Positions 9,036 to 34,473 of a stretch of 64,000 nucleotides of DNA are shown here, one piece after another. The stretch's first letter is position 1; every line of letters begins with the position of its first letter. Position numbers and translations under genes: made by a program. Origin of the DNA: Longimicrobiales bacterium (GTDB lineage: Bacteria > Gemmatimonadota > Gemmatimonadetes > Longimicrobiales > RSA9); assembly GCA_035715725.1 (NCBI GenBank), contig DASTKT010000096.1, forward strand, positions 421 through 64,420, given 5' to 3'. The notes below the pieces were generated by a model. That model had not been told where the DNA came from and did not search any database. It worked only from the letters and a program-made list of their open reading frames with translations.

Positions 9036-9047
9036 CCCGGTTACGCC

Positions 9048-12771: not shown

Positions 12772-13212
12772 TTGAGTCCGACCTGCCCGATCTGCGGCTG
12801 CGCCCTCGCCGAAGGCGACCGCGTCGTGAGCGTGCTCCCCGCCGGTTCCGGCGCCGCGCCCGCGCTGCGCGAGGTCTCGCTCGCCGCCGCCGCGGATGGC
12901 GCGCTCGCCTATCTCTGTGCCCGCCACGCCGACGCGGTCGCGCTCCTCGAATCGCTCCAGGTCGACCGCGCCTCCATCGAGCGCGAGGTCCGTGGGCACT
13001 TCTACCAGGAGCTCGATCTGCTGGCCTATGCCTTCGAGATGGAAGCCGCGCAGCAGATCGAGGAGGGACGCGACGACGACGCCGCACGCACCCAGCAGAC
13101 CCGCCTCGGCATCCGCCTGGCGGCCCGGCTCGTCGGCGGCGTGCCCGCCCCCGAGGTCGACCGCCGCCTCGAGCGCTGGCGTGACGCCTATCGCACCAAG
13201 TTCCCGGATTGA
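12772..13212 (+). CDS. Hypothetical protein (N-terminal CPICGC motif)
   Basis: 146-aa ORF with a TTG start preceded by GGAGG 5 nt upstream. GC3 is high throughout when read by codon. Confidence 0.45.
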   Translation: MSPTCPICGCALAEGDRVVSVLPAGSGAAPALREVSLAAAADGALAYLCARHADAVALLESLQVDRASIEREVRGHFYQELDLLAYAFEMEAAQQIEEGRDDDAARTQQTRLGIRLAARLVGGVPAPEVDRRLERWRDAYRTKFPD

Positions 13213-13331
13213 TCCCGTCGCGCCGCGGCCGCGCGCCGCACGCACGCGCTGGCCCATCCCGACGCCCGTACTTACCTTCCAGATGCGGACGAAGCGTCCG
13301 TTCCCCGCTTTTCCCCGTCTGGGAGTGCCGA

Positions 13332-15089: not shown

Positions 15090-15092
15090 GGC

Positions 15093-20317: not shown

Positions 20318-21232
20318 TCAGAGGTGCCGCGAGGCCGGCAGGAGCGAGCGGTGGATCGCGAGTGCCGCCCTCACCCCGGAGGCGGCCGCGCTGACGGCGA
20401 GGTACGGCGGTCCCGCCAGGTCGCCGGCCGCGAAGACTCCGCGAATCGACGTCTCCTGCGCATGATCGACGGTCAGTTGGCCACCCTCGCGGTCGCAGCC
20501 GAGCACCTCGGCGATGTCGCACGCGGGACGGGCGCCGAGATGGAAGAAGAGCGCCTCGGCGGTGACGGCCGGCGGCGCATCGAGCTCGATCCGCTCCAGC
20601 CGGCCACCGGCTGCGACGATCCGCCGGACCCTCTCGGTCCGGAGCTGGATGTCGTTCGCGCGCAGCTTGTCGAGCTCCTCGGGTCGGAGCTCGTTCGGTG
20701 CGCCGTCGGTCAGGAGCTGCACGCTGGAGGCCCAGGTGAGCAGGTACAGCGCGAGTGCCGCCGCCTCGCGATCACGGCCGTAGACCGCGACGGGTGCGCC
20801 CACCACGCTCGGTCCGTCGCAGTCCGGGCAATGGAAGGCGGACTGCCCGAACGCCTCCTCGAGCCCCGGCAGCTCCGGGAGCAGATCGCGCAGGCCGAAC
20901 GCGAGGAGCACCCGACGTGCGTGCTGGATCGCGCCCTCGTCCGTGCGGACCGTGAACGCGTCCTGCGCGCCCTCGACCGAGCGTACCGTGCCGGAGGCGA
21001 ATTCGGCGCCGGCGGCCATGGCCTGCTCGCGGAGCCGAGCCCGGATCTCGTCCGGCGGCAGGTCGGGCAGGCCGGGGAACCCGTGAACGGCCCACGTGAC
21101 GCGGTTGCGGGGCCGGCCGGCGTCCAGCACCAGCGCACGGCGGCGGTATCGCGCGAGCCAGAGCGCCGCGGAGAGCCCCGCGGGCCCGCCGCCGACCACG
21201 ACGACATCCCATCCCGCGGCGGCGCGGCTCAC
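20318..21232 (-). CDS. Thioredoxin-reductase-like FAD-dependent pyridine nucleotide-disulfide oxidoreductase
   Basis: C-terminal 304 codons of track ORF 20318..22117. The GTG start overlaps the kinase TGA (GTGA). Contains DVVVVGGGPAGLSAAL, the redox motif HCPDCDG, and GVFAAGD. Confidence 0.8.
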   Translation of the reverse strand: MSRAAAGWDVVVVGGGPAGLSAALWLARYRRRALVLDAGRPRNRVTWAVHGFPGLPDLPPDEIRARLREQAMAAGAEFASGTVRSVEGAQDAFTVRTDEGAIQHARRVLLAFGLRDLLPELPGLEEAFGQSAFHCPDCDGPSVVGAPVAVYGRDREAAALALYLLTWASSVQLLTDGAPNELRPEELDKLRANDIQLRTERVRRIVAAGGRLERIELDAPPAVTAEALFFHLGARPACDIAEVLGCDREGGQLTVDHAQETSIRGVFAAGDLAGPPYLAVSAAASGVRAALAIHRSLLPASRHL

Positions 21233-22698
21233 GACGGCAGCGTGGCGGGGGCCGGCGCGGGCTGGCGGATCGGCAGCACGATCTGGAAGCTGGTGCCCCG
21301 GCCCGGGGAGCTCTCCACGCTGATCCGTCCACCGTGGGCCTCCGCCACCTCCCGTGCGATGCTGAGCCCGAGGCCGGCGCCCTTGGTCCGGGCCTCCGCT
21401 CCCACCTGGTAGTACTTCTCGAAGATGTGCGCGAGCTGCTGGGGCGGGATCCCGACGCCTGTGTCCGTCACGGTCAGGTGCACGCTGTCCTTCGTCCCGC
21501 GGGCGAGCACGCGGATCCGCCCGCCGGCCGGGGTGAACTTCAGCGCGTTCGACAGGAGGTTGCCGAGCAGCTGGTCGCGGATGCGCGGCGCGTCGATCGG
21601 CACGTGCTGCGGCGTGGACGGGTCCACCTGGACCTGGAGGTCGATCTCCTTCTGCCGCGCGAGCGGGTCGAAGGCTCGCTCCACCTCCCCGAGGAGCGCG
21701 TACAGGTCCGCGACCTCGACCTCCATCCGCAGCCCGCCCGCCTCCAGGCGGCTGATGTCCAGCAACTGGTTCACCAGCCGGGTGAGCACACGGGTCTGCT
21801 CGTGGACCGCGCCCAGCACCTCCCGCTGCTTCTCGTTCACGTCGCCGTAGATGCCGTCCTCGAGCAGCTCCGTGTACCCGCCGACCACGTTGATCGGCGT
21901 CTTCAGCTCGTGCGTGGCGATGCTGATGAACTCGGCCTTCAGCCGGTCCAGCTCCGCCAGGCGCTGCGTCATGGAGCGGAACGACCGGGCGAGGTCGCCG
22001 ATCTCGTCGTCGCGGCGGTACGGCAGGTCGCCGGGCACGATGAACTCCCCCCCCGCGACGGCGGCCATCGCGCGCCGCAGCTTCCGGAGCGGCCGCGTAA
22101 AGGCGTCCGTCGTCCACAGCCCCAGCAGCAGCGTGATCAGCAGGGCGACGATGAGGCCGCCGAGCATCGTGGTCGTCGCCGTCGCGCTGATCTTCCGCGC
22201 TCGATTGACTTCGCCCTGGCTGCGGTGGTCGATGGCCTGCGCGATGTCGTCCAGCGAATCCTGCACCGCGGCGAGCGCGGGCTTCAGCCCCTCGAACGCC
22301 TGGGCCGCCTCGTTGACGCGTCCGCTCTGGACGAGCTCCTCGATCCGCTGCGTCGAGCGGCCGATCGCATCGAGGCGTGCGCCCGTCGCGCTCACCGCTT
22401 CGGCGTAACCGGCCGCTCCGAGCCGCGCAATCTGCGTCCGCGCGTTGATCAGCGCGTTGTGCATGCCGACCCGCTGGTCCTCCGACGGCGTCGCGATGTA
22501 GCTGCGCTCGAACCGGTTCAACTCGGCCAGCTCGCGCTGCAGACCGCCCAGCGCGAGAAACGCCGCGGCGTGGCGGCCCTGGAGTTCCTCGGCGATGTCC
22601 CGGAGATCCGCGAGCTGGCTCACGCCGTACACCGCTGGAATGACCAGGAGCGCGATTGTGCCTGCCAGGGAGAGGACCAGACGGGTTCGAACGGTCAT
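21229..22698 (-). CDS. Sensor histidine kinase (periplasmic helical sensor, HAMP, HisKA, HATPase)
   Basis: Track ORF 21229..22758. I prefer the ATG at 22698 (MTVRTRLVLSLAG, first TM). H-box IATHELKTPINVV, N-box LLSNALKFT, G-boxes DTGVGIP and GAGLGLSIA. Confidence 0.85.
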   Translation of the reverse strand: MTVRTRLVLSLAGTIALLVIPAVYGVSQLADLRDIAEELQGRHAAAFLALGGLQRELAELNRFERSYIATPSEDQRVGMHNALINARTQIARLGAAGYAEAVSATGARLDAIGRSTQRIEELVQSGRVNEAAQAFEGLKPALAAVQDSLDDIAQAIDHRSQGEVNRARKISATATTTMLGGLIVALLITLLLGLWTTDAFTRPLRKLRRAMAAVAGGEFIVPGDLPYRRDDEIGDLARSFRSMTQRLAELDRLKAEFISIATHELKTPINVVGGYTELLEDGIYGDVNEKQREVLGAVHEQTRVLTRLVNQLLDISRLEAGGLRMEVEVADLYALLGEVERAFDPLARQKEIDLQVQVDPSTPQHVPIDAPRIRDQLLGNLLSNALKFTPAGGRIRVLARGTKDSVHLTVTDTGVGIPPQQLAHIFEKYYQVGAEARTKGAGLGLSIAREVAEAHGGRISVESSPGRGTSFQIVLPIRQPAPAPATLPS

Positions 22699-22726
22699 GC
22701 GCGTCGTCGGTGTCTCGGCGGGACCG

Positions 22727-23413
22727 TCAAGGTTTGAGGATCCGGCGGATGCGGGCAAGCTCCTGCTGCGTGTCTTCGAGCTGCTTGTCCTTGTCCGCGA
22801 TCTGCCGGTCCCGCTCCGAAACCTGTGCCTGCAGCCTCCGCAGGCGCGCGTTCAGCGAGTCCCGCGTCACCTCCAGCTCGCGGATCCGCGCCGTCACCGG
22901 GGCGCCCGGAAGCTGAGGCAGCGCGCGCGTGCGACCCGCCTGCGCCAACGTCCGGGCGCGAACCGAGTCCAGCAGGACGTCGCGCGCCATCGCCCGCGCC
23001 GAATCCGCGACCGCCTCCGCCTGGTCGGCCCGCTGCTCCGCCGCGCCGAGCTCCAGTGCCAGTAGGTACAGAACCTCGGCCGGCTCCTCCGCCACCGCCG
23101 TGGTGTCCGCGAGCCCCAGATACTGCGCCAGCAGCGCCGCGCCGCCCGGGAGGTCGCGCGCCGGATTCCGCGGGTCCAGCCGGCTCGCGGCCAGCGACAG
23201 CAACGCCTGCTTCCCGACCGTTCCATCCGGATCGGTCCGGTAGAGCCGCTCGAGTTGCATCGCCGCGGCGCCGTAGTCGCCGCGATCGAGCGTGACGAGC
23301 GCCTGCTCCAGGCGGACCTCCGGACCCGCCGGCACCGGCTCGCGGCGCCGCATGACGGCGCACGAGAGCGGTGCGGCGAGTGCCGCCACGAGCAGCAGCA
23401 CGGTCGATCTCAT
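22727..23413 (-). CDS. Hypothetical lipoprotein with TPR-like region and C-terminal coiled coil
   Basis: Internal ATG (23413) of track ORF 22727..23476. MRSTVLLLVAALAAPLSC is a lipobox. The C-terminus RLRRLQAQVSERDRQIADKDKQLEDTQQELARIRRILKP is heptad-like. Confidence 0.55.
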   Translation of the reverse strand: MRSTVLLLVAALAAPLSCAVMRRREPVPAGPEVRLEQALVTLDRGDYGAAAMQLERLYRTDPDGTVGKQALLSLAASRLDPRNPARDLPGGAALLAQYLGLADTTAVAEEPAEVLYLLALELGAAEQRADQAEAVADSARAMARDVLLDSVRARTLAQAGRTRALPQLPGAPVTARIRELEVTRDSLNARLRRLQAQVSERDRQIADKDKQLEDTQQELARIRRILKP

Positions 23414-23511
23414 TCCTCGATGGCTCCTCTGCCGGGTCCGAGCCCGGGCTCTTCGCGACGTTGTGGGACCATGCAAAGCCTAGGCCCCGATCGGCCCCCT
23501 CGCAATGCCCG

Positions 23512-23527
23512 CGGCACGCGCCGTGCA
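23512..23527 (+). promoter_or_regulatory. Candidate sigma-54 (-24/-12) promoter upstream of the gvp operon
   Basis: cGGCACGcgccgTGCa compared with consensus TGGCACG-N4-TTGCW. GG (23513-14) and GC (23525-26) have the canonical spacing. It is about 130 nt upstream of the gvpF ATG on the correct strand. My rough base-composition estimate gives about 1e-3 chance occurrences in this 244-bp spacer. Confidence 0.4.
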
Positions 23528-23657
23528 AGGAATCCGGCGCGCTCGTCCGACATCGCCGCGTCCCGACTCGACCCCGGAATTCACGAGCCGCGTTGCATGC
23601 GCGGCCTCTGCACCGGTACATTCGGCCAGGCCCGCTCCCCCCAACCGACGAACGAGC

Positions 23658-24479
23658 ATGGATCGCGACCTGTCGCCGGCTCTCGATACCGGCACCGCCT
23701 ACGGGGATTCGGCGTCCGCCGACGAGGGGAAGTACGTGTACTGCGTCATCAAGACACCCGACGAGCGGGAGTTCGGACCCATCGGCATCGGCGAGGGTGG
23801 TAATGTCGTGTACACCGTAAGGTTCCAGGACCTCGCCGCGGTCGTCAGCGACACGCCGATCCGCATCTACGACCCGACGCGCGAGAACGTGCTCGCCCAC
23901 GAGCTCGTCAACGAGACCGTGATGCGCGAGTTCACCGTCATTCCGATGTCGTTCGGCACGATCTTTCGCACGAAGGAGGACATCGTCGAGCTGCTGAAGT
24001 CGACGTACCGCGCGTTCGACGACGTCCTCGAAAAAATGCGCGACAAGATCGAGTTCGGGCTCAAGGTGCTGTGGGATCGCGAGAAGGTCATCGCCCTCCT
24101 GGAGGCGGAGGACGAGGAGATCCGGCGGCTGAAGGAGGAGATCACGAACAACGCCCAGAGCTCCACGTACTTTGCCCGGATGCAGCTCGGCCGGCTCATC
24201 GAGAGCGCGCTCGAAGGCAGCGCCAACGACTACGTGGTCGACATCCACGAGTCGCTCAAGCCGGTCGCGGTGGCGAGCCGCTCGAACAAGCCGATCGGCG
24301 ACCGCATGATCATGAACGCCGCCTACCTCGTCGAGCGCAGCCGCGAGCACGACTTCGACGAGGCCGTAAAGGCGCTGAGCCGGAAGTACGAGGACCTGCT
24401 GTCGTTCAAGTACACCGGCCCCTGGCCGCCGTACAACTTCGTGAACATCAAGCTGCGGCTCGAGCGTGCCGACGCGTAG
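23658..24479 (+). CDS. gvpF: Gas vesicle protein GvpF/GvpL family (copy 1)
   Basis: Internal ATG of track ORF 23505..24479. Contains KYVYCVIK...VRFQDLAAVVSD...NVLAHELVNETVMREFTVIPMSFGTIF and C-terminal SFKYTGPWPPYNFV, the classic GvpF/L signature. Confidence 0.9.
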   Translation: MDRDLSPALDTGTAYGDSASADEGKYVYCVIKTPDEREFGPIGIGEGGNVVYTVRFQDLAAVVSDTPIRIYDPTRENVLAHELVNETVMREFTVIPMSFGTIFRTKEDIVELLKSTYRAFDDVLEKMRDKIEFGLKVLWDREKVIALLEAEDEEIRRLKEEITNNAQSSTYFARMQLGRLIESALEGSANDYVVDIHESLKPVAVASRSNKPIGDRMIMNAAYLVERSREHDFDEAVKALSRKYEDLLSFKYTGPWPPYNFVNIKLRLERADA

Positions 24480-24520
24480 GCGATCCTCGCTCCGGCGCGC
24501 CGCGTAGCGGCCCGCGTGCC

Positions 24521-24916
24521 ATGGGTATCCTCAAGCACCTCCTCTTCTGGCCCGTCACGGGCCCGCTCTTCCTCGCCGAGTTCGCCATGGACAAGGTCGA
24601 GGGTGTCGTTCGCGAGGAGCTCACCGACGATACCCCGGTGAAGGCCGCGCTGCTCGAGCTGCAGCTCGAGCTCGAGCTCGGCGACATCGACGACGCCGAG
24701 TACGTGCGGCGCGAGGCGGAGCTGATGTCTCGCCTGCGCGAGGTCCGCGAGTGGCGCGAGCGCTTCGGCATGGGCGTCGCCGGCGGCGTGGTGAAGGTGG
24801 CGGCGCCCGAGGAAGGCGAGCCGGAGTCCGAGGAGCCGCCCCCGGCGCCGGAGGAAGGACCCAGCGTCGCGGATCCCCACGGGGCCACCATCGAGCTGAA
24901 CTTCGACTGGGAATGA
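24521..24916 (+). CDS. gvpG: Gas vesicle protein GvpG
   Basis: Internal ATG of track ORF 24071..24916. MGILKHLLFWPVTGPLFLAEFAMDKVEGVV...LLELQLELELGDIDDAEYVRREAELMSRL matches the GvpG pattern, followed by an acidic Pro/Glu-rich tail. Confidence 0.75.
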   Translation: MGILKHLLFWPVTGPLFLAEFAMDKVEGVVREELTDDTPVKAALLELQLELELGDIDDAEYVRREAELMSRLREVREWRERFGMGVAGGVVKVAAPEEGEPESEEPPPAPEEGPSVADPHGATIELNFDWE

Positions 24917-26745
24917 GCGACGCTCTCGCGGCGTTGGCCGGCCGCGTGGGCGCGCGCACCACGTTCGTGGTCGGGAAGGGTGGCGTGGGCAAGACGACCA
25001 CCGCCGCCGCCCTCGCCCTCCGCCTCGCCGACTCCGGGCGGCGTACCCACCTCGTCTCGACCGATCCCGCCCACTCCGTCGGCGACGTCTTCGACGTCCG
25101 CCTCCCCGACGGCCGCGTGCACGAGAGCCCGTGCGTCGGCCGGCTCACGCTCGAGGAGTTCGACGCCGCCGGGTACGCGCGCCGCTGGGCCGGCCAGGCG
25201 GAGGCCGCCGTGGCGGAGCTCGTCGAGCGCGGCACCTACCTCGACGCCGAGGACTCCCGGGCGCTAATGGAGCTGTCGCTCCCCGGCGTGGACGAGGTCA
25301 TGGCCGTGCTGCGCCTGGTCGAGCTCGCCGGCGAGCCGATCGAACGGGTGGTCGTCGACACCGCGCCGACCGGGCACATGCTGCGGATGCTCGATGCCGG
25401 GCGCCTCATCGAGGGATGGGTGGCCGCGCTGCGGGCCATGGCGGAGAAGGCCGATGTGGTCGCCTCGAGCCTGGTCGGCCGCGCCGTCCGCAGCCCTGCG
25501 GAGGACTTCCTGGACGAGCTGTACGGGCGCGTCGAGCGCTTCACGCGTAGCGTGCTGGCGGCCGCGGAGTTCGTGGTCGTGACCCGCGCCGAGCCGGCCG
25601 TCGAGGCCGAGACCGCGCGGCTGCGGGCGGAGCTCGCCCGGCGGGGACTCACGCTGGCGGCGGAGGTCGTCGTCGGGGGTCCGGCGGCCGGCGCCGGGAG
25701 CATCGCCCTGGTCGGCGAGCCGGGGATCCGGCGGTGCGAGGCGTTGCGTCGCCTCGGCCGCGAGGTGGCGGAGCCGAAGGGGACGGCCGAGCGCTCCGCT
25801 GCGCCCGCGAGAGCGTGGCCGCCACCCGGGCGCCCGCGCGGTGCCGGAGCCTGGCTCCTGTCGCGCCCCGGGTCGCTCTTCCTCTTCGCCGGCAAGGGGG
25901 GCGTCGGAAAGACGACCTGTGCCGCCGCCTTCGCGCTCGCGCTCGCGGAGTCCCGGCCCGTTGCGCTTCTCAGCACCGATCCCGCGGGCTCGCTCGAGGA
26001 CGTCCTGGGGCTGCCGGTGCCGGCGGAGGGCGCGCGCACCGGCAGCCTGCTGGCGCGCCAGGCCGATGCGGCGGCGGAATTTGCGCGGCTCCGTGAGCGG
26101 TACCGCAAGGAGGTCGGCGCTCTCTTCGACGCGCTCGGGCTGGAGCGCGCGGCGGCGCTCGACCGGGCCGTCGTGGAGTCGCTCTGGGAGATGGCGCCCC
26201 CGGGAATGGACGAGATCGCGGCGCTGCTCCAGATCTCATCCGCCACCGAGGCCGGCACGGTCCTGGTCGTCGATCCCGCGCCGGCCGGCCACCTGCTCCG
26301 GCTGCTGGAGCTGCCCGGGATCGCGCTCGAATGGACGCACTCGCTCCTACGAATTTTCCTGAAGTACGGCCTGGCGCGCAGCCTTGACGAGCTTGTTCAG
26401 GGGGTACTACAGTTCGCTAAGGAACTGAAAGAACTTACGATCCGGCTGAGCGACCCCCAGCGGACCTCCGCCTTCGTCGTCACGCTCGACGAGCCGGTGG
26501 TGCGGATGGAGACGTTGCGCCTGGAGGCGGCGCTGCGGCGCGCCTCGGTGGCCATCTCGGCGGTCATCGTCAACCGGACCGAGGCCGGCACGGGCGCTGG
26601 GGCCGCGGGCGCGGTCGCCGGGGAATCGCGGGTGGACGGCCGATCCGGGCGGCCGCCGACCATCATCGCCCCGCGCCTGGCGCCTCCGCCGTCGGGCGCT
26701 CCGGCGCTCCAGGCGTTTCTGGCCCGGTGGGAGTTCGCGTCTTGA
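24913..26745 (+). CDS. Tandem-domain ArsA/Get3-like (SIMIBI) ATPase embedded in the gvp operon
   Basis: ATG at 24913 overlaps the gvpG TGA (ATGA). 610 aa. Half 1 has GKGGVGKTT, STDPAHS and VVDTAPTGHMLRML. Half 2 has GKGGVGKTT, LSTDPAGS and VVDPAPAGHLLRLL. The ArsA cysteine triad is not apparent and there are no ars partner genes. Confidence 0.85.
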   Translation: MSDALAALAGRVGARTTFVVGKGGVGKTTTAAALALRLADSGRRTHLVSTDPAHSVGDVFDVRLPDGRVHESPCVGRLTLEEFDAAGYARRWAGQAEAAVAELVERGTYLDAEDSRALMELSLPGVDEVMAVLRLVELAGEPIERVVVDTAPTGHMLRMLDAGRLIEGWVAALRAMAEKADVVASSLVGRAVRSPAEDFLDELYGRVERFTRSVLAAAEFVVVTRAEPAVEAETARLRAELARRGLTLAAEVVVGGPAAGAGSIALVGEPGIRRCEALRRLGREVAEPKGTAERSAAPARAWPPPGRPRGAGAWLLSRPGSLFLFAGKGGVGKTTCAAAFALALAESRPVALLSTDPAGSLEDVLGLPVPAEGARTGSLLARQADAAAEFARLRERYRKEVGALFDALGLERAAALDRAVVESLWEMAPPGMDEIAALLQISSATEAGTVLVVDPAPAGHLLRLLELPGIALEWTHSLLRIFLKYGLARSLDELVQGVLQFAKELKELTIRLSDPQRTSAFVVTLDEPVVRMETLRLEAALRRASVAISAVIVNRTEAGTGAGAAGAVAGESRVDGRSGRPPTIIAPRLAPPPSGAPALQAFLARWEFAS

Positions 26746-27542
26746 GCGAGGTCTTCTACCTCTACGGCTTCGTCTCGGCCGACGCGACTCTCCCCGAGCG
26801 AGGGCTCGCCGGCCTCGCGGACGCGTCGGTCGAGCTCGTGCCGCTCGACGGCGTCGCCGCGGTGGTCAGCCGGCTCCCCGCCGCCGACTACGCCCCCGAG
26901 CGGCTGGACGAGCGGACCCGGGACCTGCCCTGGGTCGCGGAGCAGGGACTCGCCCACGAGCGCGTCGTCGCCTGGTTCGTCGACCACGCGCAGATCCTGC
27001 CGGTGGCGCTCTTCACGCTGTACTCCTCCCGTGCCACGCTCGTGGAGGATGCCGCGCGGCGCGGCCCGGCGCTGCGCGCCGCGCTGGCCCGCATGGCCGG
27101 CAAGCGGGAGTGGGACCTGAAGGTCGCGTACGCGGGCGACCGGTTGGCGGAGCACCTGGGCGAGGTCTCGGAGGCGGTCGCGGAGCTCGATCGCCGCATC
27201 GCGGAGGCGACCCCGGGCACGCGCTTCCTGCTGCAGCGGAAGCGCGACGAGGTCGTGGAGGCCGAGACGGCGCGAACCGCGCGGCGTCTCGCCGGCGAGC
27301 TCCTCGACTCGGTCGTGGCGGACGCGGACCGATTCGTGCTCGTGCCCGTGGGAGCGAGCGAGGGCACGCTGCCGGTCGTACTCAACGCGGCGCTGCTCCT
27401 GACGCTCGAGGCGGAGAGCCGCGTCGAGGAGCGGGTCCGGCGGCGCGCCGTCGCGCTCGAGAAGCTGGGGCTGCACGTCTCCTTCTCCGGACCGTGGGCG
27501 CCGTACCGGTTCCTGGAGGAGACGAGCGCGGATGCCGGATGA
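26742..27542 (+). CDS. Gas vesicle protein GvpF/GvpL family (copy 2)
   Basis: Track ORF 26727..27542. I prefer the TTG at 26742 (TTGA overlap with the ATPase stop), giving MSEVFYLYGFV as in other GvpF/L N-termini. C-terminus SFSGPWAPYRF. Confidence 0.8.
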   Translation: MSEVFYLYGFVSADATLPERGLAGLADASVELVPLDGVAAVVSRLPAADYAPERLDERTRDLPWVAEQGLAHERVVAWFVDHAQILPVALFTLYSSRATLVEDAARRGPALRAALARMAGKREWDLKVAYAGDRLAEHLGEVSEAVAELDRRIAEATPGTRFLLQRKRDEVVEAETARTARRLAGELLDSVVADADRFVLVPVGASEGTLPVVLNAALLLTLEAESRVEERVRRRAVALEKLGLHVSFSGPWAPYRFLEETSADAG

Positions 27543-27735
27543 GCTGACACTGCAGGACGAGCTCACGCTGGTCGAGCTCGTCAATCGGGTCCTCGACCGC
27601 GGCGTCGTGATCACCGGTGAGGTGACGATCAGCGTCGCGGGCGTGGATCTGGTGTTCCTCGGCCTCGACCTGCTGCTCACGTCCGTCGAGACGGCGGTGC
27701 AGCGGAAGCGACTGCCGCCGCCACGCACGGAATGA
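27532..27735 (+). CDS. Small GvpA-family protein (GvpS/GvpM-like)
   Basis: 67 aa. LVELVNRVLDRGVVITGEVTISVAGVDLVFLGLDLLLTSVE aligns by eye to the GvpA core. GGAGGAG lies about 10 nt upstream. Overlaps the preceding gene by 11 nt. Confidence 0.75.
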   Translation: MPDELTLQDELTLVELVNRVLDRGVVITGEVTISVAGVDLVFLGLDLLLTSVETAVQRKRLPPPRTE

Positions 27736-28418
27736 GCGGCGCGTACCTCTACTGCATCGCGCCGGCGGGCGTCGTTCCGCCGGGCGGCCTGGTCGGGCTG
27801 GAGGATGCGCCGGTCCGCGTGGCGTCGTTCGGGACGTTCACGGCGTGGTATTCCGAGCTGGACGCGCGGCCCGAGCCGAGCATCGAGCGAATTCGCCGCC
27901 ACAACCAGGTGGTCGAGGCCGCGCTCACGGAGGAGGCGACGCCGGTACCGGCCCGCTTCGGGCAGTGGTTCACGGCACCGGCGGCGCTCGAGGAGAAGCT
28001 GCGCGAGGGCGCTGCCGTGCACGAGGAATCGTTGCGGCGCGTGGCCGGCGCGGTCGAATTCGGGCTGCGCGTGGCGGAGCTCGCGGCGCCGCCGGCGAGC
28101 GCTCCGGCGGCCGTTCCCGAGGCGACGACGGGCCGCGCGTACCTCGAGGCGTTGGCTGCGCGCGCGGCCGCGGACCGCTCGCGGGAAGAACGTGGCCGGG
28201 AGATTGCAACGCGCATTGCCTCCGTTCTCGGTCCTGCCGTGCGTCAGGAGCGCGTCGAGAGCGCGCAGTCACGTCACGAGGTGGTACGCATTGCGCACCT
28301 CGTCGCCCGACGGGACGTCGAGCCGTACCGCGCCGGCGTGGCGGAGGTGCGGCGCCGCTACCCGGAACTGCGGTTCTTGCTGAGCGGCCCCTGGCCGCCC
28401 TACTCCTTCGCGGCATGA
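27732..28418 (+). CDS. Gas vesicle protein GvpL/GvpF family (copy 3)
   Basis: 228 aa. ATGA overlap. N-terminus MSGAYLYCIAP, internal HNQVVEAAL...PARFG, C-terminus LSGPWPPYSF. Confidence 0.75.
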   Translation: MSGAYLYCIAPAGVVPPGGLVGLEDAPVRVASFGTFTAWYSELDARPEPSIERIRRHNQVVEAALTEEATPVPARFGQWFTAPAALEEKLREGAAVHEESLRRVAGAVEFGLRVAELAAPPASAPAAVPEATTGRAYLEALAARAAADRSREERGREIATRIASVLGPAVRQERVESAQSRHEVVRIAHLVARRDVEPYRAGVAEVRRRYPELRFLLSGPWPPYSFAA

Positions 28419-28777
28419 GTGGTGAGCGGGAGCGCGCGGCGGATGCGGCTCGCGTCGAGGCGGATGATCCCGGCCTCTTCGCAGCCGAGCTGAAGGACCT
28501 CGCGCCGGCATTGCCCAGCCGGATCGAGGCCCGATCCGACAACATCGAAGCGGGTCTCGCGAAGCTGGTCCTTACGCTTCTCGAGTTCGTCCGACAGATT
28601 CTGGAGCACCAGGCGGTGCGGCGGATGGAAGGCGGCACGCTGTCGGACGCCGAGATCGAGGAGGTCGGTCTCGCGCTGCTGAAGCTGAAGGAACGGCTGG
28701 TCGAGATCGAAGACGTGTTCGGCTTGAGCAGGGAGGATCTGAACATCGACCTCGGCCCGCTCGGACGACTCCTCTGA
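28415..28777 (+). CDS. gvpK: Gas vesicle protein GvpK
   Basis: Internal ATG of track ORF 27845..28777 (ATGA overlap). GLAKLVLTLLEFVRQILEHQAVRRMEGGTLSDAEIEEVGLALLKLKERL matches the GvpK pattern. Confidence 0.8.
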   Translation: MSGERERAADAARVEADDPGLFAAELKDLAPALPSRIEARSDNIEAGLAKLVLTLLEFVRQILEHQAVRRMEGGTLSDAEIEEVGLALLKLKERLVEIEDVFGLSREDLNIDLGPLGRLL

Positions 28778-28792
28778 CCGAAAGCGAACCGC

Positions 28793-29104
28793 TTGGCTGA
28801 GCGCTACGACCTGGGCCCGCATCGCTCGCAGGGCCTCGTGGACATCCTGGACCGGATCCTGGACAAGGGGCTGGTGATCGCGGGGGACATCCGCGTCCAC
28901 CTGGCCAACGTCGAGCTGCTGACGATCCAGATCCGGCTCCTGGTGTGTTCGGTCGACAAGGCCGACGAGATCGGGCTGAACTGGTGGCGGTCCGATCCGT
29001 ACTTCAGCGGGCGACGCGACGTCGCACAGCTCGAATCGATCGACGACCGGCTGGGGCGGCTGGAGGCGAAGCTGGCCGCTCTCGAGCCACGGCCGGCGGA
29101 GTAG
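28793..29104 (+). CDS. gvpJ: Gas vesicle protein GvpJ (GvpA family with C-terminal extension)
   Basis: 103 aa with a TTG start. GLVDILDRILDKGLVIAGDIRVHLANVELLTIQIRLLVCSVDKA is a GvpA/J core, followed by a coiled-coil-like tail. Confidence 0.8.
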   Translation: MAERYDLGPHRSQGLVDILDRILDKGLVIAGDIRVHLANVELLTIQIRLLVCSVDKADEIGLNWWRSDPYFSGRRDVAQLESIDDRLGRLEAKLAALEPRPAE

Positions 29105-29137
29105 GACTCACCCTCTCTCGAGCGACGGAGACCCGTT

Positions 29138-29434
29138 ATGGCGGTGGAAAGGGCACCGGCTGGTACCAGCCTGATCGACGTTCTGGACCGGGTGTTGGAC
29201 AAAGGGATCGTCATCGACGCGTACGTCCGCGTCTCGTTGGTGGGGATCGACCTGGTCAGCGTCGAGGCCCGAATCGTCGTCGCATCCGTGGAGACGTACC
29301 TGAAGTACGCGGAGGCGATCGGCATGACGGGTGTGGCGTCCCGGCCGCTCGTCGCTCCCCCAGGACAGCCGGACCTGGAGCGGGTCATGGCCGAGAACGT
29401 CGAGCTCCGGCGGCGCCTCGAAGAGTTGAGCTGA
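29138..29434 (+). CDS. gvpA: Major gas vesicle structural protein GvpA (with ~30-aa C-terminal extension)
   Basis: 98 aa. [52 protein letters not shown] is near-canonical GvpA. GGAG lies 8 nt upstream of the ATG. Confidence 0.9.
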
Positions 29435-29435
29435 C

Positions 29436-31592
29436 GTGTCCGTGGGATCCCGTTCCCTGGAGGCGCTGACCGCGGACCTCCTGGAGCGGCTCGCCCAGGT
29501 CGACGAGGTCCTCCCGGCATGCTCGCTCGTCCTGGAGCGAGTGGCCGCGGAGGCAGGGGTCGGCCGGGCACTGGCGCTCGTGCGCGTCGAAGACTCGGTC
29601 CGCGGGGTGGGCGTCGGGGTGGCGGACGAGCGCGTCGGCGCCATCGCGGCGTCGGCCCGGCTGGGCGAAGGGCCGTTCGCCGACTGCCTGCGGGGAGCCC
29701 AGCCCACGCCGCTCCCCGACGCCGTCGAGCTCGTCGGCTTCGGCGGCGTCGCCGTGCCGTTCCGCGGGGTGGGCGACAAGCCGCTCGGCTGCGCATTTTT
29801 CGAGCTGGACTGCGTGGATGACCGCGTGGACGTGCTCGCGGGCCTCCTTCGGCGGTGTGGGCCGGCCATCGGCCGTTGCGCGCAGCTCGAGGCCACCCGC
29901 GGCCGCCTTACCCGCATGGCGCGCCAGCGCGATCTCCTCACGGGCATCGTCGACGCGCTCCCCGACCCGGTCCTCCTGACCAGCGCCGACAACTCGATCC
30001 TGCTGGCCAATCGGCGCGCGGAGCGGCTCTTCTCCTTCTCCACCGAGGACAACGACGGCCGCCGGCGCGCGATCCAGATCAACACGTTGCTCTTCAGCTC
30101 GTTCCTGACCCGCGCGGTCATCGGCCAGGGCGGGGAGCCGGCGGGACGCGAGTTGAACCTGGTGGATCCGACGGACGGCTCCGACCTGGTGTTCGAGGTG
30201 CTGTCCTATCCGCTGCCGCCGAGCACCGCGCCGGCGGACTCCGTCCTGTCCATCCTGCGCGACATCACCGACCTGAAGCGGGCCGTCACGCAGCTGGAGG
30301 ACCAATTCCGGCGCTCCCGCATCGCGGAGCACCAGGCCCGCCGGGAGCGCGACCAGCTCGACGCCATCCTCGAGAACGTCAGCGACCCGATCCTGGTCAC
30401 GGACGAGCAGTCGAACATCATCCTCATGAACCCGGAAGCGGACCGCCTGTTCGTGGTGCCGTCCGACGGCGAGGCGAATTCCCCGGCCAGCCGCGCGGTC
30501 CAGGCGAACGACACCCGGTTCACGACGCACATCAGCGATTTCCTGCTGCGGGACGAGGCGCGCCGCGTGGTGAAGCTGACGATCACGGATCCCGATACGG
30601 GGAACGAGATCCCGGTGGAGGTCGCCAGCAGCAAGATCCTGGACTCGCGCGGTGAGCCGCGTGCGATCGTGAGCATCGTGCACGATCTGGCGCAGCTCGT
30701 GGAGAACGAGCGGCTGGCGGGGGAGCTCGGCCAGCTGAACGCGGAGCTCGAGAGCCGAATCCGGCGGGCGACGGTGGACCTCGAAGAGCGCAACCGTCGC
30801 CTGGAGTGGCAGAGCTACGAGCTGGAGCGGGCCTACCGGCTCAAGAGCGAGTTCCTGGCGAGCATGTCCCACGAGCTGCGCACGCCGATCAACGTGATCC
30901 TCGGCTACACGTCGCTGGCGCGCGAGCGGATCTACGGCGAGCTGACGCTCGAGCAGGACGAGGCGCTCGGTAAGGTCTACGGCACGTCGCAGCACCTGCT
31001 GGAGCTGATCAACGACATCCTGGACCTGTCGAAGATCGAGGCGGGCAAGATGCCGGTCCACCTCGAGGTCGTCAGCATCGACGAGATCGTCCAGGAGCTG
31101 TCGGAGACGGTCAAGCCGATGCTGGCGAGAAAGGTGCTGGACTACGAGGCGTCGGTCGAGTCGGGGCTGCCGCCGCTCCTGACGGACCGGACCAAGCTGA
31201 AGCAGATCCTGCTGAACCTGTTGTCGAACGCCATCAAGTTCACGCACGAGGGGAAGATCCGCGTCGAGGCGCGCGGTGGCCTCGGCGACCGGATCCAGCT
31301 CGTGGTCGAGGATACCGGGATCGGCATCCGGGCCGATCATCTCGAGCTCATCTTCGAGGACTTCCGGCAGGTGGACCAATCCCGCACCCGGGAGTACGGC
31401 GGGACCGGGCTCGGCCTGTCCATCACGAAGAAGCTGCTCACGCTCCTCGGCGGGGTCATCTCCGTCGAAAGCGAGTACGGCCAGGGCTCCCGCTTCACGG
31501 TCGAGCTGCCGCTTCGGACGGAGGCCGGCTCCCTCGAGGACCAGGTCCGTCGCGCCGTCGTGGAGGCCGACCGCGCCGTCGTGAAGCCGTAG
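29436..31592 (+). CDS. Cytoplasmic sensor histidine kinase (GAF-like N-domain, two PAS-like domains, HisKA, HATPase)
   Basis: 718 aa. The GTG start lies 1 nt after the gvpA TGA. H-box SMSHELRTPINVILGY, N-box LLSNAIKFT, G-boxes DTGIGI and GTGLGLSITK. No TM segment and no adjacent response regulator. Confidence 0.85.
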   Translation: MSVGSRSLEALTADLLERLAQVDEVLPACSLVLERVAAEAGVGRALALVRVEDSVRGVGVGVADERVGAIAASARLGEGPFADCLRGAQPTPLPDAVELVGFGGVAVPFRGVGDKPLGCAFFELDCVDDRVDVLAGLLRRCGPAIGRCAQLEATRGRLTRMARQRDLLTGIVDALPDPVLLTSADNSILLANRRAERLFSFSTEDNDGRRRAIQINTLLFSSFLTRAVIGQGGEPAGRELNLVDPTDGSDLVFEVLSYPLPPSTAPADSVLSILRDITDLKRAVTQLEDQFRRSRIAEHQARRERDQLDAILENVSDPILVTDEQSNIILMNPEADRLFVVPSDGEANSPASRAVQANDTRFTTHISDFLLRDEARRVVKLTITDPDTGNEIPVEVASSKILDSRGEPRAIVSIVHDLAQLVENERLAGELGQLNAELESRIRRATVDLEERNRRLEWQSYELERAYRLKSEFLASMSHELRTPINVILGYTSLARERIYGELTLEQDEALGKVYGTSQHLLELINDILDLSKIEAGKMPVHLEVVSIDEIVQELSETVKPMLARKVLDYEASVESGLPPLLTDRTKLKQILLNLLSNAIKFTHEGKIRVEARGGLGDRIQLVVEDTGIGIRADHLELIFEDFRQVDQSRTREYGGTGLGLSITKKLLTLLGGVISVESEYGQGSRFTVELPLRTEAGSLEDQVRRAVVEADRAVVKP

Positions 31593-31631
31593 CAGGACGT
31601 CGGCTCGCGCCGGTCCGCGAGGAAGGGTTCC

Positions 31632-32768
31632 ATGCGTCCCCGGATCTCGGTCGCCCTCACGGCACTCGTCCTCCTCTTCTTCCTGCAGGCCCATCGTGAT
31701 TTTGCCGCGCTGCTCGTCGGCGGCGCCGCGGTCCCGCCCGCGGCGCGGAGCGCGGCCCTGTTGTCTCTGGTGCTGCTGTTCCTGCCGCTCCTGCCCTTCA
31801 CCCTGCGTTGGAGTCGAACCTGGCTCGTCGTCGCGACCGCCGTGACCGCGACCGCCGCCCGCCTCGCCCTCGCCGCCGCCGCGCCGCGCCCGGCGCTGCA
31901 GGCGCCGCTCGCCGCGCTGACGATGGCCGCCGGTGCCCTCTACCTCGGCGTCGGCGTCGGACTCCTCCCTCGTCGCAGCATCGCCGGCGGCGCCGCGCTG
32001 GCCGTGTTCCTCGACGTGGCGACGCGCTGGGCCGACGCGGCCGGAGCGGGGACCGGGAGTCCCGCGATCGGGCTGGGCCTCACGCTCGCCGCACTCCTCG
32101 CCACGCTGGCGTGGGTGACCCCGCGCGCCGGTGCCCAGACCGAGGAGGCCAGCCTGGAGCGGCGCGCCGGCGGGCTCCGGAGCCGGGGCGCCGTCGCCTT
32201 TGGCGTCATCGTCTTCCTCGAGAGTGCCGTGCTCGCCAGCCCCGACGTCGGTGCGGCCGTGACGGGGAGTTCGTTTTCCGACGTGGCGGTGGCGATGGCC
32301 GTCGTCGCCCTCGGCGCCGGGCTCTGGCTGCTGGGCGGCGGTGGGCCGACGCGCCTGTACCGCCCGCGCCTTCTCCTCATGGGGGGCACGGCGGCGGGCG
32401 CCGCCGCGCTGGCCGAGTCCGTCGGCGGAATGGCGGCCGGGGCGTTGCTCCTGGTCGGCCACGCGTGCGCGCTCCTGCTGCTCGGCCGCGCGCTGGCGCC
32501 GGCGAGCGGGCGGCGGGAGGCCTCCACCGTCGTGGCCGGCCTGAGCGTGCTGATCCTGCTCGACGGCGCGCTCGCGCTCTCCATGAGCCGCGGCGGCGGT
32601 CTCGAGGCCTGGCTGGTCTTCGTCCTCGCCGGCGTCCTCCTCACCGCCGCGCTCTTGCTCATCCCGCGCCCCCAGCCCGCGCCGCCCCTGCTCCCGCGGG
32701 CGATGGGGCAAGCCGCGCTCGGCGCCTCCCTGGTGACGGCGGTCCTGCTGCTCGTCCTCCGCCATTGA
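31632..32768 (+). CDS. Hypothetical polytopic membrane protein (about 10 hydrophobic segments; no family recognised)
   Basis: 378-aa Ala/Leu-rich ORF. GGAAGGG lies upstream of the ATG. Starts 39 nt after the kinase stop. Confidence 0.6.
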   Translation: MRPRISVALTALVLLFFLQAHRDFAALLVGGAAVPPAARSAALLSLVLLFLPLLPFTLRWSRTWLVVATAVTATAARLALAAAAPRPALQAPLAALTMAAGALYLGVGVGLLPRRSIAGGAALAVFLDVATRWADAAGAGTGSPAIGLGLTLAALLATLAWVTPRAGAQTEEASLERRAGGLRSRGAVAFGVIVFLESAVLASPDVGAAVTGSSFSDVAVAMAVVALGAGLWLLGGGGPTRLYRPRLLLMGGTAAGAAALAESVGGMAAGALLLVGHACALLLLGRALAPASGRREASTVVAGLSVLILLDGALALSMSRGGGLEAWLVFVLAGVLLTAALLLIPRPQPAPPLLPRAMGQAALGASLVTAVLLLVLRH

Positions 32769-32841
32769 GCCGCGGGGCCCGGCGGGCACGGCGCCGCCGA
32801 TCCGGTGGCTCCAGGAGGGCCGTGTCGATGCGGCGAGACGC

Positions 32842-32878
32842 AAGACGGCCGCGGCGGGACTCCCGCCGCGGCCGTCTT
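32842..32878. terminator. Perfect 17-bp hairpin (3-nt loop) between convergent genes
   Basis: aagacggccgcggcggg act cccgccgcggccgtctt read directly. Only a short T-rich tail (cttatt). Confidence 0.55.
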
Positions 32879-32901
32879 ATTCCGCGCTTCCGCGCTGTCG
32901 G

Positions 32902-34473
32902 TCAGTCGCCGAGCCGATCGCTCGTGGCCAGGCGCCGTTCCCCTCTCATGGCCTGCACGCGGCTGTGCTGCCGGCCGTAGAAGAAGTAGAGCGCCATGCC
33001 GATCACCAGCCAGATGATGAGGCGCAGCCAGGTGTCGAACGGGAGGGCGACCATCATCAGCAGCGAGACCGCGATCCCCATGATCGGCACGAACGGCACC
33101 GCCGGCGTGCGGAACGGGCGCGGCAGATCCGGCCGCGTCCTGCGCAGCACCCAGATCCCGGCGCACACGATCACGAACGCCAGCAGCGTTCCGATGCTCA
33201 CGAGCTCGCCGAGGATCGAGATCGGGATGAGCGCCGCGAAGATCGCCACGAAGATGCCGACGAAGATCGACGACACCCACGGGGTGCGGAAGCGCGGATG
33301 GATCGCGCTCGCCCAGCGCGGCAGCAGCCCGTCGTGCGACATCGAGTAGAAGATGCGGGACTGGCCGAGGAGCATCACGACCATCGTGCTGCTCAGGCCC
33401 GCGATCGCCCCGAGCTTGACCAGGAAGCTCCCCCAGGCCACACCCGTCTTGTCGATGCCGATCGCGATCGGGTCGGGCACGCCCAGCTGCGTGTACTTGA
33501 GCAGCCCGGTGAGCACGCCGGCGACGAGGATGTAGAGGATCGTGCAGATGACGAGCGAGCCCAGGATCCCGACGGGCATGTCCTTCTGCGGGTTCTTCGC
33601 CTCCTGCGCGGCCGTGGAGACCGCGTCGAAGCCAATGTAGGCGAAGAAGATGACGCCGGCCGCGCGGGCCACGCCGGACCAGCCGTACTTCCCGAACCCG
33701 CCCTCGTTCGGCGGCAGGAAGGGAGTCCAGTTCGACTTCGCCTCCGGCATGTGCTGCATGAGGTAGTAGCCGCCGAGCCCGATGAAGACCAGCAGCACGC
33801 ACACCTTCACGATCACGATGAAGGAGTTGAAGTTCGCCGACTCCTTGATGCCGATCACCAGGATCGTCGTCACGAGCGCGATCCCGAAAAATGCCACCAG
33901 GTTGAAGATGCCGGTCTGGTGCGGCAGCGTCGCGGGGTCGATCCCGGCCGCCTGCAGCGACGGAGCGATCCGGGAGAGCAGCTCCCACTTGCCGTTGTGG
34001 AGCACCCATTCCGTTCCGGGCGTGCCGGCGAGCTTCGGCGGGATGCGGATGCCGAAGTCCTGAAGGAAGCTCACGACGTAGCCGCTCCAGCCCGAGGCCA
34101 CGGTGGCAGCGCCGAAGGCGTACTCCAGGATCAGGTCCCAGCCGATGATCCAGGCGAAGATCTCGCCCAGCGTGGCGTAGCCGTACGTGTACGCCGAGCC
34201 CGCCACCGGGATCATGGCGGCGAACTCTGCGTAACAGAGCCCCGCGAAGACGCAGGCGATGGCCGCCAGCACGAACGAGAGGACGATCGCCGGGCCGGCG
34301 TAGTTGGCGGCCGCGGCCCCGGTCAGCACGAAGATCCCCGTGCCGATGATGGCGCCGATCCCGAGGGAGATCAGGTTGGTGGCGCCGAGCGCGCGTCGCA
34401 GGCTGTGAGCGCCCTCTTCGCCCGCCTCCGTCATGATGGTGTCGATCGGCTTCGTCGCGAGAAGGTCTGCCAT
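32902..34473 (-). CDS. Amino acid permease (APC superfamily, cationic amino acid transporter-like)
   Basis: Track ORF 32902..34518. I prefer the ATG at 34473 (AGGAG upstream). Contains LRRALGATNLISLGIGAIIGTGIFVLTG and multiple TM segments. Confidence 0.9.
   Translation of the reverse strand: MADLLATKPIDTIMTEAGEEGAHSLRRALGATNLISLGIGAIIGTGIFVLTGAAAANYAGPAIVLSFVLAAIACVFAGLCYAEFAAMIPVAGSAYTYGYATLGEIFAWIIGWDLILEYAFGAATVASGWSGYVVSFLQDFGIRIPPKLAGTPGTEWVLHNGKWELLSRIAPSLQAAGIDPATLPHQTGIFNLVAFFGIALVTTILVIGIKESANFNSFIVIVKVCVLLVFIGLGGYYLMQHMPEAKSNWTPFLPPNEGGFGKYGWSGVARAAGVIFFAYIGFDAVSTAAQEAKNPQKDMPVGILGSLVICTILYILVAGVLTGLLKYTQLGVPDPIAIGIDKTGVAWGSFLVKLGAIAGLSSTMVVMLLGQSRIFYSMSHDGLLPRWASAIHPRFRTPWVSSIFVGIFVAIFAALIPISILGELVSIGTLLAFVIVCAGIWVLRRTRPDLPRPFRTPAVPFVPIMGIAVSLLMMVALPFDTWLRLIIWLVIGMALYFFYGRQHSRVQAMRGERRLATSDRLGD

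Follow-up and report, generated by a model that had tools for sequence, protein, structure and literature searches.

A compact gas vesicle gene cluster without detectable GvpN, conserved among Gemmatimonadota

How a gas vesicle might be built without GvpN is the question raised by a nine-gene gas vesicle (gvp) operon at positions 23658-29434 of contig DASTKT010000096.1 (positions throughout are those of the window, the whole 64,000-nucleotide stretch of DNA analysed here). GvpN is described as present in all gvp clusters by two reviews, one of which holds it essential for elongation, the passage from bicone to cylinder (PMC10903477, PMC9501494). The source genome is a metagenome-assembled genome (MAG) of 5.9 Mb in 242 contigs, 92% complete, in which the window lies on a contig of 72.8 kb. 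On balance, the stretch probably carries a chromosomal, vertically inherited gvp operon of an uncultured, mainly soil-dwelling member of the Gemmatimonadota, with the protein roles proposed below.

Pfam identifies all nine genes, which are tightly packed on the + strand. The first, gvpF1 (23658-24479; GvpL_GvpF, PF06386, 3.2e-78), is the canonical GvpF orthologue, and is followed by gvpG (24521-24916; PF05120, 1.6e-14), whose 131-aa product ends in an acidic proline-rich tail. A fused two-domain P-loop ATPase of the ArsA/Get3 family comes third (610 aa, 24913-26745; two PF02374 ArsA_ATPase domains, 1.8e-70). The GvpF/L paralogue gvpF2 (26727-27542; PF06386, 4.8e-44) occupies the GvpL position and has GvpL as its best NCBIfam model. 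Next stand a small GvpA-family gene resembling gvpS/M (67 aa, 27532-27735; Gas_vesicle, PF00741, 2.1e-14), with only weak, below-cut-off NCBIfam matches to GvpM, GvpJ and GvpA; the third GvpF/L paralogue, gvpF3 (27732-28418; PF06386, 1.5e-44); and gvpK (28415-28777; PF05121, 9.4e-31). The last two genes are gvpJ (103 aa, TTG start, 28793-29104; PF00741, 1.6e-16) and gvpA, encoding the 98-aa major shell protein (29138-29434; Gas_vesicle, 6.9e-16; NF006874 GvpA, 113.8 against a threshold of 100). Thus gvpA, three gvpF/L genes, gvpG, gvpK and two minor gvpA-like genes are all present above the Pfam gathering scores. A sequence-only reading of the same DNA had listed this composition and order, with three GvpF/L proteins, three GvpA-family proteins and gvpA last, as well as the conserved core of A, F, G, J, K, L and S/M, and Pfam and NCBIfam bear it out on each count. 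Its description of tight junctions also stands: from 5' to 3' they measure +41, -4, -19, -11, -4, -4, +15 and +33 nt. The -19 value assumes that gvpF2 starts at GTG 26727; a TTG start at 26742 would give a -4 junction with a TTGA overlap of the arsA stop, and the TTG start region is also kept in a same-genus relative that lacks the ATPase gene. Only the end of the unit at gvpA needs revision. The next gene, for a PAS-domain sensor histidine kinase (29436-31592), begins 1 nt past the gvpA stop, and the transcription unit very probably runs on into it.

Searches of the whole genome with profiles and with tblastn recover no orthologue of GvpN, GvpO or GvpC, in agreement with the sequence-only reading of the operon. 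The best score against the GvpN model TIGR02640 in the MAG is 36 bits, far from the cut-off of 266.8, and the same model reaches 366 bits on an Octadecabacter plasmid used as positive control. Several candidates (C59, C178 and others, at 21-36 bits) were rejected; the one examined, C178, is a CbbQ/NorQ-like AAA protein encoded beside a vWA protein on another contig, with 26% identity to Octadecabacter GvpN by tblastn. Tblastn of the MAG with Octadecabacter GvpN, GvpO and Hsp20 likewise finds no orthologue. PF05800 (GvpO) and PF01304 (GvpC) have no match in the MAG, in searches that were both run without a positive control, and the genome could still hold divergent analogues of these two poorly conserved proteins. 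Its PF00741 genes number three, all inside the gvp operon. At the level of the phylum, GvpN is found at 1e-20 in none of 401 genomes drawn evenly from Gemmatimonadota, and the 10-kb surroundings of 106 related loci, 1.58 Mb in total, contain no homologue of GvpN, GvpO or Hsp20. Because GvpN is missing from the operon, the genome and the sampled phylum, shell growth must go on without this AAA+ protein.

The cluster is neither rare nor variable in its lineage. Of 61 close relatives, 23 have Gas_vesicle-family genes; in the sample of 401 genomes the figure is 29, spread over 17 of 148 genera, and the genes there almost always number three and are spaced alike. A scan by GvpF1 alignment, taking one genome per species, yields 80 loci, whose GvpF1 proteins are 70-95% identical to that of the window, and 79 of them are titled Gemmatimonadota or a subordinate name (Gemmatimonadetes, Gemmatimonadales, Gemmatimonadaceae, Gemmatimonas, Longimicrobiales or Longimicrobiaceae), the remaining one, L046, being labelled only "uncultured bacterium"; the Gemmatimonadota host suspected in the sequence-only reading is thereby confirmed. 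Tblastn with the window proteins finds the order F1-G-(ArsA)-F2-S-F3-K-J-A in all 51 complete clusters among these loci and again in 18 loci from relatives, and gvpG follows gvpF1 in every cluster examined. A scan for relatives that used the single ArsA protein as query returned no confirmed relative.

Selection on the operon was gauged against a same-genus relative. The ratio dN/dS is 0.02 for GvpA, 0.07 for GvpF1, 0.14 for GvpS, 0.16 for GvpJ, 0.18 for GvpK, 0.22 for the kinase, 0.25 for GvpF2, 0.37 for GvpG and 0.39 for GvpF3, the fastest evolving. By this measure all gvp genes are under purifying selection, and GvpF1 is the most conserved protein of the cluster after GvpA. These ratios bear directly on the notion that the cluster is a decaying, non-functional relic, as the remnants seen in some relatives (L083, L085 and L139) might suggest. 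In the window, nine intact frames, ratios of 0.02-0.39 and preserved start/stop overlaps speak against decay, and a relic is highly unlikely.

A recent horizontal island, or a contig mis-binned from another phylum, would account for the patchy distribution (29 of 401 genomes) and for the lower G+C of gvpF1, gvpK and gvpA. The sequence-only reading had remarked on the lower G+C of gvpF1 and offered strong conservation or horizontal acquisition as its cause; the first explanation holds and the second does not. The G+C of gvpF1 is 0.636, but its third-position value (GC3) of 0.93 is the highest of the nine gvp genes, and only the first and second codon positions (GC1 and GC2) are low. Since the low G+C is confined to these positions, it reflects amino-acid constraint and not foreign origin. 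GC3 is 0.81-0.94 throughout the operon. The chromosomal neighbours are conserved on both sides. One flank holds LuxE/LuxC, SLT transglycosylase, Pyr_redox_2 (thioredoxin-reductase-like), HAMP-kinase and lipoprotein genes; on the other, beyond the gvp genes and kinase, come genes for an amino-acid permease and a K+ transporter. Distant relatives show the same flanking genes, some of them on multi-megabase contigs and one in a MAG consisting of a single 5.4-Mb contig. GvpF1 identity declines with taxonomic distance, from 95% within the genus to 79-89% within the family and 70-77% further off, and no mobile-element genes are seen adjoining the cluster. Recent import or mis-binning is therefore very improbable, and the distribution, synteny and substitution patterns point instead to an operon that is inherited and selected and has been lost in many lineages.

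The assembly scheme favoured for this inherited operon draws on what is known of each family. GvpA would polymerise into the ribbed shell, and GvpJ and GvpS/M, both GvpA-like, would act early, in the nucleus or the cone tips. GvpF1, as canonical GvpF, would bind GvpA, while GvpF2 in the GvpL position, GvpF3, GvpG and GvpK would contribute to nucleation and form the assembly scaffold. The ATPase would most likely assist the GvpA-family proteins, which are very hydrophobic, as an ATP-dependent helper or chaperone, by analogy with the way Get3 holds hydrophobic tails. The PAS kinase, translationally coupled to gvpA, may be a dedicated regulator or sensor of the system.

The ATPase gene raises a question of its own, namely whether its product is an arsenite pump subunit, a Get3-like factor or a substitute for GvpN. 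The protein passes the GET3/ArsA/TRC40 model TIGR00345 (244.7 against 135) and fails the arsenical-pump equivalog TIGR04291 (164.6 against a cut-off of 650). Its closest solved structures are the tandem ArsA proteins 9nbl, 5zme and 1f48, followed by Get3 (1e-13 to 1e-21). Two GKGGVGKT P-loops and the motifs DTAPTGH and DxAPAGH (here DPAPAGH) are conserved in 119 homologues. The metalloid-binding cysteine triad of E. coli ArsA (C113, C172 and C422) has no counterpart: the 9nbl cysteines in GACTTE, ASCLGP and HSPCTEE oppose non-cysteine residues, the last of these comparisons being visible only when the N-terminal half of the query is aligned to the C-terminal half of 9nbl. No ars genes appear among the Pfam results for the flanks, and in all 45 loci that carry the ATPase gene its neighbours are gvp genes. 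By these features the ATPase is not an arsenite pump. Get3 itself is a single-domain homodimer clamped by a CXXC zinc site; unlike it, the ATPase is a fused pseudo-dimer whose only cysteines, three in number, form no CXXC motif, and Pfam finds no Get1/2-like gene in the operon. The three cysteines (C74, C275 and C336) are at least 96% conserved in the 119 homologues and lie away from the arsenite-binding positions, one of them directly after the second P-loop (GKGGVGKTTC), and they might form a metal site or act as a redox switch.

An obligatory role, in which this ATPase replaces GvpN, drives shell elongation with ATP and cannot be removed without failure of the cluster, would suit several of its features. 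It is the sole ATPase of the operon, with translational coupling to both neighbours; its two nucleotide sites show conservation across 119 homologues, the gene holds the same position in 45 clusters, and GvpN is not found in the phylum sample. The distribution of the gene among relatives nevertheless makes this improbable. Among 58 clusters in which the junction of G and F2 is covered, the ATPase is present in 45 and absent from 13 that are otherwise intact. On the GvpF1 tree its presence and absence require seven changes, of which at least four are forced by well-supported branches, so that at least four independent losses are indicated. In 11 of the 13 genomes without it, no ArsA homologue is found elsewhere at 1e-10. 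A same-genus relative without arsA, JADGGV010000061.1, keeps about 90 nt of the arsA 3' end ahead of gvpF2, a remnant showing that the gene was deleted there, and every other gvp gene of that relative is still under purifying selection. ArsA-family ATPases also coexist with an AAA_5/GvpN-type gene in other cluster types (L129; PMC2963123), and the related compact clusters L132-L134 have neither ATPase. Because relatives have repeatedly lost it while the rest of the operon stayed under selection, the ATPase is best regarded as accessory. Its dispensability within the lineage, as read from these losses, is a new point of this analysis, and an ATP-dependent helper for GvpA-family proteins remains the role preferred here.

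The link between ArsA homologues and gas vesicles is itself older. Castillo and Saier reported that gvp clusters in cyanobacteria, Bacteroidetes/Chlorobi and Acidobacteria contain two-domain ArsA homologues, and suggested for these a part in energising a step of biogenesis (Castillo & Saier, 2010; PMC2963123). Their clusters (ArsA clusters 4 and 6) resemble the present one in having a fused ATPase of about 600 aa of the ArsA family inside a gvp operon, in lacking arsR, arsB or acr3 neighbours and in missing the arsenite-binding cysteines. The acidobacterial cluster in that study combines two L/F genes and single J, K and M genes with an ArsA homologue, and is listed without gvpN (PMC2963123). 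The present operon differs in belonging to another phylum, in its three GvpF/L genes and in its attached PAS kinase. The earlier account is a genome-context note without experiment, to which the dispensability of the ATPase is added here. Clusters of this class, noted in 2010, have met with no experiment since, and the present locus is one of many equivalent examples. No paper linking Get3 with gas vesicles appears in the literature searched, and tblastn of the ATPase against plasmids gives no match at 1e-20, hence no named plasmid with a gvp-linked tandem ArsA. On whether the cluster is a common, already described type, as the sequence-only reading had allowed it might be, the answer is divided: it is common in the phylum (at least 51 species; 29 of 401 genomes), the ArsA link was published in 2010 (PMC2963123), and no paper in the open literature searched deals with gas vesicles in this phylum.

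A short patch of the ATPase gene stands out in composition: 33 codons at 26347-26445 have a GC3 of 0.61, against 0.91 for the whole gene, and hold the sequence TTGACG-18-TACAGT. The dip is also weakly present in L041 and L046, and not in about 40 other orthologues. An internal promoter here, suggested by the sigma-70-like site and the GC3 dip (26384-26413), was discarded, as it is not conserved in 45 orthologues.

Regulation offers a second, very tight association. The kinase encoded next to gvpA is a cytoplasmic PAS-PAS-HisKA-HATPase sensor histidine kinase by its Pfam domains (718 aa, 29436-31592, + strand), and a kinase follows gvpA in all 54 informative Gemmatimonadota loci. Of the 401 sampled genomes, 34 encode a homologue of its sensor part (aa 1-465, with the generic catalytic domains left out): 28 of the 29 that have gvp genes and 6 of the 372 that do not (Fisher 4e-36, uncorrected for phylogeny). 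In the exception, G099, a kinase-like gene stands upstream of gvpF1 instead. Judged by this co-occurrence, the kinase is a dedicated part of the gvp system. It has no receiver domain, and neither a receiver nor an enhancer-binding protein is encoded in the operon. Outside the phylum set, homologous kinases (36-45% identity, in one case along the whole protein) lie beside GvpF and a single-domain receiver in L130, L131 and L134. Regulatory genes embedded in gvp clusters have a precedent in gvrA, gvrB and gvrC of Serratia sp. ATCC 39006 (PMC9501494).

Some lineages have taken the operon apart. In a clade of 10 Gemmatimonadaceae-labelled species that form one branch of the GvpF1 tree, gvpF1 and the PAS kinase share one locus, and G-ArsA-F2-S-F3-K-J-A with a second kinase copy occupies another (L090:486-7771; L104:4049-13049; L120-L123). 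About 3-4 kb upstream of the F1-kinase pair in this clade stand a second GvpL/GvpF-family gene and, immediately after it, a Ser/Thr protein kinase gene. L083 (10001-13419) and L085 (645-4575) have only gvpF1, gvpA and the kinase, with no other Gas_vesicle gene in their genomes; GvpA there departs from residues that are otherwise invariant (YLKY becomes YPRD, for instance), and GvpF1 and the kinase are still at dN/dS 0.1-0.2. L139 retains the kinase and a 43-aa GvpF1 fragment. The order in L130 (2424-6387) is gvpA-kinase-receiver-gvpF, and in L131 (4265-7619) receiver-gvpF-kinase.

GvpF is thus paired with the kinase where structural genes have moved or decayed (the split-locus clade, L083/L085, L130 and L131), and the link between the two may outlast the vesicle genes. 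About a fifth of Gemmatimonadota clusters, moreover, have neither GvpN nor a Get3-like protein and are yet under selection. A scheme in which vesicles assemble without any dedicated ATPase, under post-translational control exerted by the PAS kinase through GvpF, can be offered on this footing as a tentative and rather doubtful proposal. A stricter version would make GvpF1 and the kinase obligate partners; it is weakened by four gvp-negative genomes that have the kinase alone (L135-L138) and by clusters L132 and L133, which have no kinase.

The shell protein carries a feature of its own. An AlphaFold2 model of GvpA built with 30 orthologues predicts the canonical helix-strand-strand-helix fold (a helix at 12-21, strands at 26-34 and 40-48 and a helix at 51-64), a low-confidence segment at 62-75 and a final helix at 79-97; its mean pLDDT is 65, rising to about 75 in both the core and the terminal helix. 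A 20-residue terminal motif is conserved in these 30 orthologues across the phylum. On the model, the C-terminal helix is a lineage-specific addition, and one may speculate that, with no GvpC in the operon, the tail could serve as a built-in stiffener or docking site. GvpB of Bacillus megaterium also has a longer C-terminus than classical GvpA.

Whether the products serve flotation is a further question for the vertically inherited, vesicle-building operon proposed here. The cluster might be expressed for some other role, or be mostly cryptic, as has been discussed for actinomycete gvp clusters. The public runs that hold the window sequence are mostly soil metagenomes, GvpN for long cylinders is missing, the dedicated PAS kinase suggests tight conditional control, and reduced F1-(A)-kinase loci exist in several lineages. 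Against this, more than 50 species keep the full set of nucleation and shell genes in an unchanged order, and GvpA is the most constrained protein (dN/dS 0.02), as fits a structural shell. Buoyancy would still pay in soil pores filled with water and in soils that flood from time to time, and soil bacteria are counted among the vesicle formers in Pfeifer's review (PMC9501494). A product not meant for flotation is accordingly the less favoured explanation, with perhaps one chance in a handful or slightly better.

Several considerations weigh against the vesicle-building operon beyond those already named. If the reviews are right that GvpN is universal and essential, a cluster free of it might give only small bicones or nothing. 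No member of the phylum is known to make gas vesicles; the open literature searched holds no paper on them there, just as the sequence-only reading had supposed. The habitat is mainly soil, where the use of buoyancy is unclear. The MAG is only 92% complete, so that a gene missing from the assembly is conceivable in this genome, and all 80 related loci come from MAGs. Chaperone activity of the ATPase, regulation by the kinase and any function of the GvpA tail are all inferred. In one metatranscriptome, exact contigs of 188-295 nt fall on gvpG, gvpF2/gvpS, gvpA and the kinase gene at word depths of 2.7-6.2, which weakly supports transcription of the operon in situ; other genes of the window reach similar or higher depth, and carry-over of DNA is possible.

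Comparison with known clusters shows how much of the arrangement is shared. The sequence-only reading had called the gene order atypical, a view that proves overstated beside B. megaterium, whose cluster is gvpAPQBRNFGLSKJTU (PMC9501494). Both have the order F-G-L-S-K-J and GvpS in place of GvpM, and F-G-(ArsA)-L-S-(F')-K-J corresponds to FGLSKJ once the ATPase, inserted after G, and the third GvpF/L, inserted after S, are set aside. B. megaterium has in addition GvpN, GvpP/Q/R/T/U and two GvpA-type genes at the front, and lacks the ArsA-type ATPase, a third GvpF/L and the kinase.

The best annotated match of GvpF1 (41%) lies on plasmid pOA238_160 of Octadecabacter arcticus 238 (NC_020910.1). 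Octadecabacter arcticus is a gas-vacuolate species. Identities to its proteins are 64% for GvpA, 48% for the GvpJ-like protein, 43% for GvpK and 41% for GvpF. The plasmid cluster runs gvpA ... gvpN, hsp20, F, G, O, J-like, L, L/F, S-like, F/L, K, and shares with the window several GvpF/L paralogues (four there) and the local order F-G ... L-S-F-K. The gvpS/M-like gene and gvpF3 match in position its small gas vesicle gene, which lies between two GvpF/L genes, and the GvpL/F gene that stands between S and K. The Octadecabacter cluster carries gvpN, gvpO and hsp20, has gvpA upstream, and is plasmid-borne and flanked by insertion sequences (IS). Four traits set the present operon apart: N, O, C and Hsp20 are absent, J and A stand at the 3' end, and both the ATPase and the kinase are present.

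Resemblance to a minimal actinomycete set, also suggested by the sequence-only reading, proves partial and the label is not kept. Streptomyces coelicolor, with the cluster gvpOAFG-JLSK (PMC9501494), is likewise a soil bacterium without gvpN and gvpC, and has the F, G, J, L, S, K core and GvpA. The S. coelicolor type has gvpO, with gvpA in front, and no ArsA-type ATPase or third GvpF/L; here gvpO is not found, gvpA is last, and the ATPase and kinase are present.

Closer parallels come from related soil contigs. L134 (GvpF 64%) has the order J-A-PAS kinase-receiver-F-G-L-S-F'-K followed by an ECF sigma factor gene, and L132 and L133 (46%) have J-A-F-G-L-S-F'-K; neither GvpN nor ArsA is found in these three clusters. 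A compact gvp class free of GvpN, GvpO and GvpC is widespread in Gemmatimonadota and, apparently, in other soil phyla. A large and distinct gvp type occupies L129 (1-20894; 46%), with GvpA, GvpO, an AAA_5 protein of GvpN type, a DnaJ-type zinc-finger protein and Hsp20, together with a single-domain ArsA, a Cdc48-type double AAA protein, GvpF, GvpG, zinc-finger proteins, two Gas_vesicle proteins, GvpK and GvpL/F.

Added here to the published picture are the absence of GvpN across the sampled phylum, the repeated clean loss of the ATPase, the tight association of the PAS kinase and the conserved C-terminal helix of GvpA. A gvp operon that is conserved and selected across a phylum without GvpN contrasts with the universal GvpN of the reviews. 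If such operons make vesicles, they would represent a minimal, GvpN-independent route of assembly, and the natural pairs with and without ArsA would provide a ready test of the function of a Get3-like ATPase. Compact 6-kb clusters are candidates for acoustic reporter genes. Should the proposed reading be true, Gemmatimonadota, which are abundant in soils, would join the organisms that possibly regulate their position in water films.

The boundaries of the transcription unit can be placed with varying assurance. Downstream, 39 nt after the kinase gene, lies a gene for a polytopic membrane protein (378 aa, 31632-32768, + strand) without a Pfam or NCBIfam match, whose homologues follow the kinase in only about 10 loci of nearer relatives (33-78% identity). 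A perfect 18-bp inverted repeat at 32842-32878, between the membrane-protein gene and the convergent amino-acid permease gene, likely marks the end of the unit, which possibly extends as far as this hairpin; no terminator with a T-tract is found in 22600-33200. About 145 nt upstream of gvpF1, a weak candidate -24/-12 sigma-54-like element reads cGGCACG-N4-gTGCA (23512-23527, + strand). Its exact GGCAC-N6-TGC core recurs at the same distance upstream of gvpF1 only in the closest relatives, L040 and L041, and looser CGGC.C...TGCA forms lie 155-220 nt upstream in several same-family relatives. Genes for RpoN and some 10 enhancer-binding proteins are present in the genome. A sigma-54 promoter was not accepted, as the strict consensus is found in no locus and the relaxed form is insufficient to call one. 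The nearest NtrC-type regulator (9036-10388; receiver, sigma-54 AAA domain with GAFTGA, HTH) lies 13 kb upstream; as a partner for the kinase it was set aside, being missing from the 10-kb cluster flanks of relatives.

On the other side, a divergent operon on the - strand (20318-23476) adjoins the gvp genes. It encodes a lipoprotein with a coiled-coil tail (22727-23476), a HAMP histidine kinase (21229-22758) and a thioredoxin-reductase-like flavoprotein (about 20318-21232), and contains no response regulator. This trio also stands beside the gvp operon in the relatives L124, L126 and L127. Further upstream, at 13185-17635, a thioredoxin-domain (YyaL-like) gene precedes a LuxE/LuxC-like pair that is not accompanied by luciferase genes, and the same set is kept upstream of gvp in two of these relatives (L126:1-2587; L127:1-1882).

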